This document shows positions 42,143 through 43,459 of a stretch of DNA of 64,000 bases, piece by piece (positions within the stretch are counted from its first letter, which is position 1; every line of letters starts with the position of its first letter). Origin of the DNA: Escherichia phage Mizar; the sequence record PV714129.1; one strand, 5' to 3'. A program made the position numbers and the translations under genes. Below the pieces are notes generated by a model. The model worked only from the letters and a program-made list of their open reading frames with translations, did no database searches and was not told the origin of the DNA.

Positions 42143-42487
42143 TTATTTTGGCATATCATCAATTTGTTCTCTACGTCTACGCCATAGATTAATTACTTCA
42201 TCAACACATTCGGCGTTTGATATATGACGGCAATAATATAATGATTCGCGTTTCTGGAACCGATGTTGCAATGGGATTTCGTTTAAAAGGTCTTTACGGT
42301 CAAAGTATTCAAAACTAGTTAACCCAGAACGGTTTTTAAGGAACTTCCAATGACCAAATTCATTTTGAACATAGACGTAATCGGCATGCTGATACAGCGA
42401 ATTAATTAACCTATCGGAAATAACTGTTTCACGTTCGTTAAAATAAAACGTTAAATCATGAACTACCAGATAAACATTGCCTTTCAT
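42143..42487 (-). CDS. Hypothetical protein between tRNA region and small-RNA region
   Basis: Start at MKGNVYLVV with GAGGAAAA SD. Confidence 0.45.
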   Translation of the reverse strand: MKGNVYLVVHDLTFYFNERETVISDRLINSLYQHADYVYVQNEFGHWKFLKNRSGLTSFEYFDRKDLLNEIPLQHRFQKRESLYYCRHISNAECVDEVINLWRRRREQIDDMPK

Positions 42488-42505
42488 ATTTTCCTCACTT
42501 GAAGT

Positions 42506-42581
42506 TGGTGCCTCTAGAAAGATTTGAACTCTCACCATTAACCTTAGAACGATTATATGCTATCCATTACACTATAGAGGC
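42506..42581 (-). tRNA. tRNA-Arg (anticodon UCU)
   Basis: Manual fold: acceptor GCCTCTA/TAGAGGC, anticodon loop GTTCTAA, T-loop TTCAAAT, encoded CCA. Confidence 0.7.
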
Positions 42582-43238
42582 AATTAAATTATTTACAATA
42601 TCTTCTTTATAAACTTCAGCATAATGAAGTTCGTATATTTCCCATCCTAATGATTTTATAATATCATGGCGTTCTTTATAATAAGGGGCCAAAATCTTTT
42701 TCTTAGGATTGGAGTAATGTTGGTTTCCATTAACTTCAATAATAATCTTTTTATCTATTAAAGCAATATCCGTGCAATACGCTCGGTTTTTAACCGGTTG
42801 GTATTCTTCAATAAATGAAATTCCGTTTTCTATTAATTTAGATTTCAAAAATTCACAAGGCACAGATTTAAATTTTGTATTTTTCTTCCAAGGATGTTTA
42901 TCGGGGTTTTCATTCAACCATTTTTTCCGAGCATTAGATATTTTTATTCTAGATTCCTCAGAGTGTTCTCTACCTAATGAAGCGGCTGACAATTTTTGTC
43001 TAGTCTCTTCCGAAATTACTACAGGAACACCAGTCTTTTTAGATACAACATACTGGTTTAAATTACCTGAAGCTATACGTGCTTTATTCATTGCTGCAAT
43101 GGCTGATTTAGAACTTTCTTTATACAATTCCAATTTAGGGTTGGATTTACACCATCTAGTGTGGTTAGCCATCCATCCTTTAGGTTTATTAGAAATATCA
43201 AATTCCATATTACAATGTTTACAAATGCTCATTACCAA
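42567..43238 (-). CDS. Endonuclease-like protein (zinc ribbon plus Vsr/DUF559-like IIEVNGNQHY motif); candidate homing endonuclease
   Basis: N-terminal CKHCN...HTRWC; C-terminal IIEVNGNQHY; 3' end overlaps the 5' end of tRNA-Arg. Confidence 0.45.
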   Translation of the reverse strand: MVMSICKHCNMEFDISNKPKGWMANHTRWCKSNPKLELYKESSKSAIAAMNKARIASGNLNQYVVSKKTGVPVVISEETRQKLSAASLGREHSEESRIKISNARKKWLNENPDKHPWKKNTKFKSVPCEFLKSKLIENGISFIEEYQPVKNRAYCTDIALIDKKIIIEVNGNQHYSNPKKKILAPYYKERHDIIKSLGWEIYELHYAEVYKEDIVNNLIASIV

Positions 43239-43306
43239 TTATCTCCTATAAAATATAGGAGTATTTATTATTTGGATAGAGCACTTAATTTACTTCGTTT
43301 AAATTA

Positions 43307-43378
43307 CTGGCGCACTTGGACTCGAACCAAGATAAAGGAGTTAACAGCTCCCCGTAATAACCTTTATACGATGCACCA
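43307..43378 (-). tRNA. tRNA-Asn (anticodon GUU)
   Basis: Manual fold: acceptor TGGTGCA/TGCGCCA, anticodon loop CTGTTAA, T-arm CTTGG-TTCGAGT-CCAAG. Confidence 0.6.
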
Positions 43379-43384
43379 TTTGTT

Positions 43385-43459
43385 TGGTGACCCTGGCTGG
43401 TTTCGATCCAGCTACCTATCAGTTATGAGCTGACAGCTCTCCCATTGAGCTACAGGGCC
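43385..43459 (-). tRNA. tRNA with CAU anticodon (Met, or Ile if lysidine-modified)
   Basis: Manual fold: acceptor GGCCCTG/CAGGGTC, anticodon loop CTCATAA, T-loop ATCGAAA, encoded CCA; 6 nt from tRNA-Asn. Confidence 0.65.

Follow-up and report, generated by a model that had tools for sequence, protein, structure and literature searches.

In phage T4, the slot between tRNA-Ile (the anticodon of which reads CAT in the gene) and tRNA-Arg is occupied by segB, a gene for a free-standing GIY-YIG homing endonuclease. SegB has its target within a tRNA gene and spreads along with the tRNA genes next to it (PMC2330249). The segB ribosome-binding site is sequestered by a hairpin, and this kind of hairpin/promoter control is also documented for I-TevI, I-TevII, I-TevIII and Aeh1 mobE (PMC2988022, PMC2330249). 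For I-TevI, which is encoded in the T4 td intron, untimely translation harms splicing (PMC2988022).

A second group of homing endonucleases resembles Vsr of Escherichia coli, a single-domain T:G mismatch repair nickase with a His-rich zinc site. In the Vsr-like homing endonucleases, an invariant Glu takes the place of Vsr Phe62, and some known copies are free-standing and preceded by hairpins (PMC2677866). The residue that corresponds to Vsr His64 is described as Asn or His in the Vsr-like/EDxHD endonucleases (PMC2677866, PMC3239194). I-Bth0305I, a member of the EDxHD family, has a DNA-binding region that contains NUMOD motifs at its N terminus and a nuclease at its C terminus. According to its authors, this family takes in the Hef-type endonucleases of T4-related phages.

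Here we analyze an open reading frame (ORF) in the tRNA region of Escherichia phage Mizar (PV714129.1). The window analyzed is a stretch of 64,000 nucleotides of this genome, and all positions below refer to it. We conclude, with a probability of roughly 70%, that the ORF encodes a homing endonuclease of the Vsr-like (EDxHD/DUF559-type) class and is free-standing, located in a tRNA operon in the slot that segB occupies in T4.

Organization of the tRNA locus

In the 64-kb window ARAGORN calls exactly three tRNA genes, all on the minus strand: tRNA-Arg(UCU) at 42506-42581, tRNA-Asn(GUU), for which CCA is not encoded, at 43307-43378, and a CAU-anticodon tRNA, called as tRNA-Met, at 43385-43459. 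Their scores against the Rfam tRNA model (gathering score, 29) are 56.3, 53.6 and 59.4 bits, respectively. These are the same three tRNAs (Arg-UCU, Asn-GUU and CAU) that had been folded by hand in an earlier reading made without database searches (the sequence-only reading). The CAU-anticodon tRNA is the positional counterpart of T4 tRNA-Ile, to which it is 72% identical. On its upstream side, the cassette described below is bordered by this tRNA, the sequence of which is the same in phages with and without the endonuclease (zero mismatches to phage LF82-41). The tRNA-Asn gene is a member of the window-type cassette and is missing from the empty-site Mosigvirus allele (e.g., that of LF82-41). 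The T4 stable RNAs rnaD and rnaC have homologs at 41843-42142 (minus strand), which align with T4 positions 71053-71171 and 70908-71046 at a mean column identity of 86%. Their presence marks the locus as a reduced version of the T4-type tRNA operon. The phage that carries the ORF is a T4-like (Mosigvirus-type) coliphage.

Between tRNA-Arg and the rnaD homolog lies a conserved 114-amino-acid (aa) ORF (42143-42487, minus strand; phrog_3355, PHROG E = 2e-50), which is outside the cassette and is also found in LF82-41, which lacks the endonuclease. A longer, 131-aa version of this ORF from 42538 was rejected because its start lies inside tRNA-Arg and because 42487 is the start that is conserved and has a ribosome-binding site. 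The interval 42143-43459 that had first been delimited does contain the tRNAs and the endonuclease ORF, but its first position, 42143, belongs to this downstream 114-aa ORF and not to the endonuclease gene.

The endonuclease ORF was first listed at 42567-43238 on the minus strand, as 223 aa with a TTG start. However, all of its homologs start with ATG-AG(C/T) and have a Shine-Dalgarno sequence 6 to 10 nt upstream, so the real start is most likely the ATG at 43232. The putative free-standing homing endonuclease gene is therefore placed at 42567-43232 (minus strand). The sequence-only reading had described a 223-aa protein between the tRNAs; the position stands, while the length is probably 221 aa. 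The end of the ORF, GCC TCT ATA GTG TAA (A-S-I-V-stop, 42581-42567), coincides with nucleotides 1 to 15 of tRNA-Arg. The four-codon overlap with the 5' acceptor stem that had been noticed earlier is thus exact, and the stop codon also falls inside the tRNA, at D-loop positions 13 to 15.

The parallel with T4 that had been suggested for this region is borne out. Like segB, the Mizar ORF lies between a CAU-anticodon tRNA and tRNA-Arg(UCU), in the same orientation, and its product is similar in size to SegB (221 aa). In contrast, segB stops 5 nt before tRNA-Arg, while the Mizar ORF stops 15 nt inside it.

Protein class and predicted fold

The predicted protein has a CCHC zinc ribbon at its N terminus, followed by a helical region that weakly matches Pfam NUMOD3 (E = 1.5e-3) and, at the C terminus, a nuclease domain (residues ~124-220). 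The two motifs noted in the sequence-only reading, the zinc ribbon and IIEVNGNQHY, are both present and both conserved among 63 homologs. The Cys and His ligands of the zinc-ribbon-like motif (C4-x2-C7...H24-x3-C28) are conserved in 43 to 46 of the 63, and within IIEVNGNQHY (residues 164-173), E166, N168, G169, H172 and Y173 are found in every sequence. E143 and D155 are, like E166, N168 and H172, invariant (63/63), while D190, the last Asp of the EDxHD motif, is kept in 43/63 sequences (68%). Between lineages, dN/dS of the endonuclease gene is 0.06-0.20.

A profile search of the protein, one of the checks that had been proposed for it, places Pfam DUF559 (PF04480) marginally above its cut-off (21.3 versus 20.6 bits; residues 153-212 of the 223-aa form). 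The best Pfam E-value, 4.3e-5, belongs to the RAP domain (PF08373), yet its score of 23.8 bits is below the cut-off of 24.2; the resemblance to RAP is explained by the Vsr-like fold that is common to both. No NCBIfam family matches the protein. In an AlphaFold2 model (pLDDT, 91.3), the C-terminal domain has a Vsr-like, alpha/beta restriction-endonuclease-like fold, and its top structural match is the homing endonuclease I-Bth0305I. Neither single-protein phmmer nor a 63-sequence profile finds 3R3P or Vsr among the PDB sequences. Based on the modeled structure, kinship to I-Bth0305I and Vsr is visible at the level of the fold only, with no detectable sequence-profile similarity to either.

When the 63-sequence profile is aligned to Vsr by hhalign, the alignment is sensible, although statistically weak. 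In this weak alignment, D155 falls on Vsr D51, E166 and N168 fall on Vsr F62 and H64, H172 is placed within the Vsr His run at 69-72, and D190 is 3 residues away from Vsr D97. Asp is found at the Vsr Asp51 position, and Asn at the Vsr His64 position, in both I-Bth0305I (N208 for the latter) and the Mizar protein (N168). Unlike Vsr, the Mizar protein has separate DNA-binding modules, is part of a mobile cassette, and has E166 in place of Phe62. Its architecture, an N-terminal DNA-binding region followed by a nuclease, is that of I-Bth0305I and the EDxHD family, but the N terminus of the Mizar clade is a CCHC zinc ribbon and the final Asp of the motif is less than fully conserved. The genomic settings also differ: I-Bth0305I is intron-encoded in recA, and nrdB is the gene that Hef reportedly cuts, whereas the Mizar clade is free-standing and tied to tRNA clusters.

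Two other endonuclease classes were considered and rejected. The protein is not a GIY-YIG/SegB homolog, since it has no GIY-YIG match in Pfam and no BLASTP similarity either to T4 SegB or to the SegB ortholog of phage p000v. Together with the Vsr-like C-terminal fold, this agrees with the initial impression of a nuclease-like protein that is not GIY-YIG. It is also not an HNH endonuclease, since it has no HNH match in Pfam and its catalytic domain is of the alpha/beta restriction-endonuclease-like type. Two homologs are labeled "HNH" in their GenBank records, which seems to be the result of annotation transfer.

Predicted expression signals upstream of the gene

Upstream of the ORF is a T4 late-promoter-like box, AATAAATA (43262-43269, minus strand), which is one mismatch from the consensus TATAAATA and abuts an RNA hairpin, CTCCTATA-TTT-TATAGGAG (43243-43261, minus strand). 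The 3' arm of the hairpin holds the Shine-Dalgarno sequence GGAG, and an outer stem, GUGCUC/GAGCAU, additionally covers the AUG. The predicted fold of 43215-43306 has an energy of -20 kcal/mol (z = -3.85), and none of 200 shuffled sequences folds as well. Six diverged homologous loci have the exact TATAAATA in the equivalent position, and, at the sequence level, a box and a hairpin that hides the ribosome-binding site are found in 7/7 diverged loci, with z-scores of -3.2 to -6.2. These per-sequence folds, and not RNAalifold, are the basis of the argument for the hairpin; RNAalifold on five upstream regions recovers only the outer stem, with little covariation, and the inner hairpin is misaligned by indels. 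A scan for sigma-70 promoters, the scope of which excludes T4 late promoters, finds sites no more numerous than in shuffled sequence.

The early and middle read-through transcripts double as tRNA precursors, and on them the hairpin would hide both the Shine-Dalgarno sequence and the AUG. Since the late-promoter box abuts the hairpin, late transcripts would begin inside it and would be translatable, although late expression may be weak in the Mizar lineage because of the one mismatch in AATAAATA. Control of this kind would also stop ribosomes from entering tRNA-Arg during its processing. A hairpin that sequesters the ribosome-binding site is shared with segB, and the placement of a late promoter beside such a hairpin is shared with I-TevI. 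However, the structured RNA at the Mizar locus is a tRNA and not a group I intron, and the likeness to I-TevI is one of regulatory analogy.

Replacement of the tRNA-Arg allele

The closest relative of Mizar by flanking sequence, LF82-41, does not have the ORF. By the boundaries of the BLAST comparison, LF82-41 matches window positions 43384-44100 at 99.4% and 41800-42509 at 94.7%. Between these flanks, an 874-bp segment of Mizar (42510-43383, minus strand) that comprises tRNA-Asn, the control region, the ORF and tRNA-Arg stands in place of a 75-bp segment of LF82-41 that comprises a spacer and an RB69-type tRNA-Arg. The Mizar tRNA-Arg shares 60% identity with the RB69-type allele and 70% with T4 tRNA-Arg. 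This Mizar-type (T4-type) allele occurs in 11 phage records, all 11 of which have the ORF. In contrast, among 202 records with the RB69-type allele, the ORF is found only in the chimera DCP548, which has a chimeric tRNA-Arg pseudogene with a crossover in a T-arm stretch that the two alleles share.

The same exchange is observed independently in Klebsiella phages, in which either an RB69-type tRNA-Arg or the ORF with a T4-type tRNA-Arg is found between flanks that are 98.7% identical, while the Arg alleles themselves are 60% identical. Within this Klebsiella clade, 6/176 records have the cassette. Salmonella phage SEA1, in which the same tRNA-Asn allele lies directly beside an RB69-type tRNA-Arg, provides a third comparison that shows the swap. 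We therefore rejected a simple insertion between tRNAs, since the tRNA-Arg is a different allele. The original description of a tRNA cluster interrupted by an endonuclease gene is correct in that the gene lies between tRNAs, but what has taken place is a replacement that brought its own tRNA-Arg and, in Mizar, also tRNA-Asn. Judging from these sequence comparisons, the cassette seems to move with its own replacement tRNA-Arg gene.

Distribution and mobility

A conserved block (42480-43461, minus strand) is carried by 9 of 805 matching phage records. In the eight phages other than Mizar the block is 99.0-99.7% identical, whatever the divergence of the flanks, and its tract ends are variable (positions 42455-42501). 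Flank identity, determined from sliding identity and per-base mismatch maps, ranges from 60 to 98% overall; it is 60-86% for the Tequatrovirus ELT1 and 84-98% for the others. The step in ELT1 from a block that is ~99.5% identical to flanks that are 60-86% identical points to recent directional spread. The ORF is missing in most relatives instead of being fixed at this site in all of them, and, where present, it is ~99.5% identical in a few phages across genus boundaries. Both observations support the earlier suggestion that a mobile endonuclease is plausible here. Degraded and alternative states of the locus also exist: PTE-Eco05 has a frameshifted copy of the ORF, G2285 and AV115 have deletion remnants of it, and the Mosigvirus p000v has an unrelated endonuclease, the SegB ortholog (76% identity), in the same slot.

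It could be argued that the block moves passively, by ordinary homologous or microhomology recombination in a hyperplastic tRNA region, and that the nuclease is a passenger or has some other purpose. tRNA genes are short, conserved substrates for recombination, and the borders of the cassette are at tRNA ends (the CCA of tRNA-Met and that of tRNA-Arg), which ordinary recombination could yield. The position of the DCP548 crossover within the shared T-arm stretch, the AV115 deletion, which spans two T-loop-like GGTTCRAATCC motifs, and the G2285 deletion, which lies between short imperfect repeats, are all consistent with such a process. However, passive shuffling does not explain why the traveling gene is a nuclease with invariant catalytic residues under a dN/dS this low, why its homologs in unrelated phages lie beside tRNA-Arg(UCU) specifically (see below), or why it has the control design typical of T4 homing endonucleases, and the identity step in ELT1 also argues against it. 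We regard this explanation as improbable, although it is the strongest of the alternatives to a homing endonuclease.

Association of the protein family with tRNA-Arg(UCU)

In IMG/VR, 59 non-redundant viral loci encode members of this family, and 56 of them have tRNAs within 2 kb. tRNA-Arg(tct) is found within 300 nt of the gene in 22 of the 59 loci and is enriched over the other tRNAs of the same loci (Fisher P = 7.8e-12). Four of six other metagenomic homologs likewise adjoin tRNA-Arg(UCU). The DNA-binding N termini of relatives are interchangeable and are either zinc ribbons or HTH domains. The tie of the family to tRNA-Arg(UCU) suggests that its target is likely a rival tRNA-Arg gene; for the Mizar enzyme, the likely candidate is the RB69-type tRNA-Arg gene. 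Near distant family members, 22 tRNA-Arg(UCU) genes are closer to the T4 type and 8 to the RB69 type, but at 55-75% identity these classes are not separable. This tie differs from the specificity of SegB, which recognizes a generic T-psi-C motif of many tRNAs.

These associations also bear on whether the protein is a competition or defense nuclease that degrades or excludes the DNA of a co-infecting phage or of the host without homing, its position being incidental. The nuclease is well conserved, and the free-standing endonucleases of T4 help to exclude T2 markers (PMC2330249). Exclusion by the T4 Seg enzymes is, however, the same process as homing, and the strict linkage to divergent tRNA-Arg alleles, together with replacement in three clades, is predicted by homing with co-conversion and not by a general nuclease, which makes a role of this kind very improbable. 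Least probable of all is an RNA-acting enzyme of the tRNA operon, either a nuclease of RAP-like Vsr fold or an RNA-binding protein, with a role in the processing or protection of phage tRNA precursors: this would suit the RAP E-value and the tRNA clusters in 56/59 loci, but the RAP score is below its cut-off and is accounted for by the common Vsr-like fold, a DNA homing endonuclease ranks first among the structural matches, the N-terminal modules of the family are of DNA-binding types (NUMOD3, HTH and MerR-like), most phages with the same tRNAs do not have the gene, and others have frameshifted or deleted copies with no sign of compensation.

Proposed mechanism

As a homing endonuclease, the Mizar protein would act during mixed infection, using its zinc ribbon and the helical NUMOD-like region to bind DNA and cutting the rival genome in or beside its RB69-type tRNA-Arg(UCU) gene. 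Recombinational repair would then copy the donor segment (the endonuclease gene and the T4-type tRNA-Arg, here with tRNA-Asn) into the break. While the replacement pattern is observed, the cleavage that would drive it is something that we infer, and the donor tRNA-Arg is presumably uncuttable. SegB differs in this respect, since both its activity and its homing are proven.

Because the ORF ends inside tRNA-Arg and the acceptor stems of the two alleles are incompatible, a crossover that separates gene and tRNA leaves a chimeric tRNA that is dead, and in this way the endonuclease gene stays linked to its tRNA-Arg; one such chimera, that of DCP548, is seen. A bolder and still doubtful extension is that the cassette is a natural cleave-and-rescue element, in which Vsr-like endonucleases specialized on phage tRNA-Arg(UCU) spread with a recoded, immune tRNA-Arg. 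The rival's tRNA-Arg allele would be destroyed, and the rescue tRNA would be fused to the nuclease gene by way of the stop codon. Selection for keeping a rescue tRNA cannot be absolute, since some phages (p000v, G2285 and DCP548) can do without tRNA-Arg. As a corollary, the RNase P cut at the 5' end of tRNA-Arg would strip the stop codon from the endonuclease mRNA. If this is true, any given transcript could end up as mature tRNA or as translatable message but not as both, and the dosage of the nuclease would be held back by an intrinsic brake.

Implications

The Mizar ORF belongs to a class of mobile genes that is already known, in which it is an uncharacterized member; it does not represent a new kind of system. 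In public phage genomes, annotations of the gene read "hypothetical protein" or, incorrectly, "HNH endonuclease," and no function is assigned to the PHROG family that it matches best. Its assignment to the Vsr-like homing endonuclease class means that at least two unrelated families of endonucleases compete for the segB slot in tRNA operons of the T4 type. It also helps to explain abrupt differences in tRNA content and tRNA-Arg allele between otherwise nearly identical phages, therapeutic phages of Escherichia and Klebsiella among them. The tie to tRNA-Arg(UCU) provides a concrete candidate target in an enzyme class with one deeply characterized member, I-Bth0305I, and a long-target nuclease of such a kind could serve in the engineering of T4-like phages.

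Phage tRNAs have been linked to escape from host defenses that cleave tRNAs. In the abstract of a 2026 paper (PMC13096335), SegB is linked to the amplification of anti-defense loci. In light of these links, endonuclease-driven exchange of tRNA genes may affect the fitness of the phage, beyond the selfish spread of the endonuclease gene.

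The endonuclease ORF sits where T4 carries segB, in a reduced tRNA operon of the T4 type

ARAGORN calls three tRNA genes in the entire 64-kb window, every one on the minus strand: tRNA-Arg(tct) at 42506-42581, tRNA-Asn(gtt) at 43307-43378, and tRNA-Met(cat) at 43385-43459. These are the genes that the sequence-only reading had folded by hand (Arg-UCU, Asn-GUU, and CAU), and they score 56.3, 53.6, and 59.4 bits, respectively, against the Rfam tRNA model. Unlike both of its neighbors, the tRNA-Asn gene does not encode CCA: its sequence closes with ...GCGCCAG, followed by TAA, and the host enzyme would have to add the CCA. 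Between tRNA-Asn and tRNA-Arg lies the endonuclease ORF (42567-43238, minus strand), originally read as a 223-aa protein. An ORF of that length does exist from a TTG codon, but the true start is almost certainly the ATG at 43232, which gives 221 aa, because 6 of 6 diverged homologs begin with ATG-AG(C/T) behind a GGAG. (Residue numbers refer to the 221-aa form.) The last four codons had been placed inside the 5' end of tRNA-Arg, and in fact the terminal codons GCC TCT ATA GTG TAA are tRNA-Arg nucleotides 1 to 15, with the TAA stop codon within the D-loop.

The window region matches 805 phage records, almost all from T4-like coliphages, of which Mosigvirus (RB69-type) phages match best. The T4 tRNA operon has the order Gln-Leu-Gly-Pro-Ser-Thr-Ile(CAT)-[segB]-Arg-rnaD-rnaC. 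The CAU tRNA of the window has 72% identity to T4 tRNA-Ile and the same position in the operon, and a 300-nt noncoding stretch (41843-42142, minus strand) shows homology to rnaD and rnaC, the stable T4 RNAs also called species 2 and species 1, down to the tRNA-like end GGTTCAAATCC. An Rfam search of this stretch gave no family match. Based on the rnaD/rnaC homologs and the counterpart of T4 tRNA-Ile, the window locus is a reduced T4-type tRNA operon. The T4 positional counterpart is likewise a CAT gene, and the "tRNA-Met" at 43385-43459 may, once its anticodon is modified, be a tRNA-Ile that reads AUA instead of a tRNA-Met. The first reading noted that T4 has a homing endonuclease gene in its tRNA region; T4 segB sits in the equivalent slot and orientation to the window ORF. 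T4 differs in lacking a gene where the window has a conserved 114-aa ORF (42143-42487, minus strand) between tRNA-Arg and the rnaD homolog; this ORF belongs to phrog_3355 (function not assigned) and has a weak DUF2654 match. A longer 131-aa reading from 42538 would have its start within tRNA-Arg and is unlikely to be genuine.

The protein is Vsr-like by predicted fold and active-site layout

Both motifs first picked out by eye, the N-terminal CxxC...HxxxC and IIEVNGNQHY (residues 164 to 173), are found in the protein. It had been judged not to be GIY-YIG; a Pfam search gave no match to GIY-YIG or HNH, and the protein is unrelated to SegB, a GIY-YIG enzyme. Pfam DUF559 scores 21.3 bits, barely above the cut-off, RAP scores slightly below its cut-off, and NUMOD3 gives an E value of 1.5e-3. 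The top PHROG family is phrog_503 (function not assigned), phrog_9084, "homing endonuclease," matches with an E value of 1.6e-5, and an NCBIfam search gave no match.

At least 131 homologs are present in the protein database, several of them labeled "very-short-patch-repair endonuclease" by JGI. Their common part is the C-terminal ~60%, while the N termini vary between zinc ribbon and HTH-type domains. An AlphaFold2 model from 63 homologs is confident (pLDDT, 91.3) and predicts a small N-terminal beta-hairpin and helix bearing C4, C7, H24, and C28, followed by a helical region and finally an alpha/beta domain (residues 124 to 220). E143, D155, E166, N168, G169, and H172 are present in 63/63 homologs, E127 in 61/63, and D190 in 43/63. 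In a weak profile alignment with E. coli Vsr, D155 corresponds to Asp51, E166 to Phe62, and N168-G169 to His64-Gly65. I-Bth0305I has Asn at the Vsr His64 position (PMC3239194), and Vsr-like homing endonucleases have been noted to carry an invariant Glu where Vsr has Phe62 (PMC2677866). HMM searches found no sequence-level connection of the protein family to I-Bth0305I or Vsr. From the fold and active-site layout of the model and the residue alignment, we class the protein as Vsr-like (EDxHD/DUF559-type); at the sequence level, its membership is putative. An RNA-directed, RAP-like role fits the evidence less well. The dN/dS values between lineages are 0.06 to 0.20, so the protein is under purifying selection.

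Predicted control of expression

The sequence TATAAATA is directly 5' of a hairpin in 7 of 7 loci examined, and the window's version is the promoter-like box AATAAATA at 43262-43269. Hairpin z-scores across the seven loci range from -3.2 to -6.2, and the 3' arm contains the Shine-Dalgarno sequence, except in a Providencia phage, where it contains the AUG. This design of box plus hairpin is documented for I-TevI/II/III, segB, and Aeh1 mobE, in which no protein is made from early read-through transcripts and translation occurs on late transcripts initiated inside the hairpin (PMC2988022; PMC2330249). The I-TevI ORF likewise extends into structured RNA (PMC2988022). By analogy with I-TevI, the hairpin would prevent ribosomes from reaching the 5' part of tRNA-Arg on transcripts that serve as tRNA precursors. 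A further prediction is that the endonuclease mRNA would lose its stop codon when RNase P cuts at tRNA-Arg.

The block is mobile and subject to decay and loss

The ORF block is present in only 9 of the 805 matching records (8 phages), with 99.4 to 99.6% identity. Phage LF82-41, whose flanks are the most similar among the relatives, has neither the ORF nor tRNA-Asn, and its tRNA-Met and tRNA-Arg are ~6 nt apart; 42510-43383 of the window (874 bp) stands in place of 75 bp in LF82-41. The segment 42480-43461 is 99.0 to 99.7% identical to eight carriers, and identity falls outside it. Because the flanks in the Tequatrovirus carrier ELT1, which has a full T4-like tRNA array, are just 60 to 86% identical, the block has moved recently between genera. 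The ORF is missing from this site in most relatives, and the sequence-only reading of a plausible mobile endonuclease gene among tRNAs is supported and can be sharpened. In ELT1, a further annotated homing endonuclease gene adjoins the DNA end protector gene (11375-12034 of the fetched locus, L016).

In phage PTE-Eco05, a 1-nt insertion disrupts the ORF. Phage G2285 retains tRNA-Asn, the promoter box, and half of the hairpin, followed by a ~1.07-kb deletion after which sequence resumes at the end of the downstream ORF. In phage AV115, the annotated tRNA-Asn (L100, ~1507-1600) is a chimera: the T-loop marks the junction between the tRNA-Asn 5' part and the tRNA-like 3' terminus of rnaC, and the deletion removes the endonuclease gene, tRNA-Arg, the 114-aa ORF, and rnaD. 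Phages AV109 and AV114 match the identical truncated portion of the query and may have this deletion in common with AV115. The Mosigvirus p000v (L003, 1999-2667) carries a SegB ortholog (76% identity to the T4 protein) in the same slot, and ARAGORN called no tRNA-Arg in the retrieved part of p000v. These loci show invasion, degeneration, loss, and competition from a different endonuclease, as expected for the life cycle of a selfish endonuclease gene. Secondary BLAST hits of the G2285 locus also brought up short intergenic repeats in the window (35 to 100 nt, 77 to 97% identity; ~25713-25782, 35784-35865, 36056-36108, 37367-37435, and 45237-45338), which may be repeated promoter or terminator modules.

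The endonuclease gene travels with its own tRNA-Arg allele

The window tRNA-Arg and the empty-site tRNA-Arg are 60% identical, and their acceptor stems and D-arms differ. All 11 phage records with the window-type (T4-like) allele have the ORF or a version 78 to 82% identical to it, and of the 202 records with the RB69-type allele, only that of phage DCP548 has the ORF. There, the ORF is followed by a chimeric tRNA-Arg whose 5' part is the endonuclease-linked allele and which is RB69-type from the T-arm on; its acceptor stem is unable to pair, and ARAGORN makes no call on it. This chimera is a fossil crossover within the tRNA.

Klebsiella phages provide an independent instance of the swap: KPV15, without the endonuclease, has [tRNA-Arg RB69-type - tRNA-Leu], and Shark_ER15, with flanks 98.7% identical, has [tRNA-Leu' - ORF - tRNA-Arg T4-type], with the 15-nt overlap and frame as in the window. 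Salmonella phage SEA1 has a tRNA-Asn allele identical to the window's and an RB69-type tRNA-Arg 6 nt on. Across three comparisons in differing sequence contexts, the sole element common to the replaced segments is an RB69-type tRNA-Arg(UCU) gene, and this gene is therefore the leading candidate for the cleavage target. Passive recombination at tRNA repeats fits the evidence less well. The endonuclease gene is physically joined to a tRNA-Arg allele of its own and is always inherited together with it.

The family is associated with tRNA-Arg(UCU)

Every one of the closer homologs (51 to 82% identity; Gaprivervirus, Klebsiella, Providencia, and Acinetobacter phages) is located between tRNA genes. 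Among six distant metagenomic homologs, four have tRNA-Arg(tct) 55 to 243 nt upstream and a fifth is inside a tRNA cluster. In a pattern-based IMG/VR sample (68 loci, 59 nonredundant), tRNAs are within 2 kb in 56 of the 59, a tRNA is ≤300 nt from the ORF in 44, and tRNA-Arg(tct) is there in 22. tRNA-Arg(tct) accounts for 22/59 adjacent tRNAs versus 6/216 nonadjacent tRNAs from the same loci (Fisher P = 7.8e-12). In 15 cases it is upstream of the ORF, by 17 to 71 nt in most; in 7, the ORF abuts or overlaps the tRNA-Arg 5' end or is head-on against tRNA-Arg. One IMG/VR contig (L036, 1509-1839) has an ARAGORN tmRNA-like gene (tag peptide AQQQKALIT*) in a 16-tRNA cluster beside a family member. 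The anti-CBASS gene acb1 lies ≤~2 kb from the tRNA/endonuclease region in a metagenomic contig (L021, 226-693) and several Klebsiella phages, so that tRNA clusters and anti-defense genes are neighbors there.

Neither free-standing homing endonucleases of phages nor the EDxHD-type fold is new, and the general idea of endonucleases that accompany and spread tRNA arrays has been published for SegB (PMC2330249) and for cyanobacterial HNH genes. Our literature search found no published description of a tie between this endonuclease family and tRNA-Arg(UCU). The comparisons presented here indicate that the ORF is a free-standing Vsr-like homing endonuclease gene cassette that occupies the position of segB in a T4-type tRNA operon, and that it represents a previously uncharacterized clade that lives beside tRNA-Arg(UCU) genes. 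One possibility is that the cassette combines a nuclease with an immune replacement tRNA.
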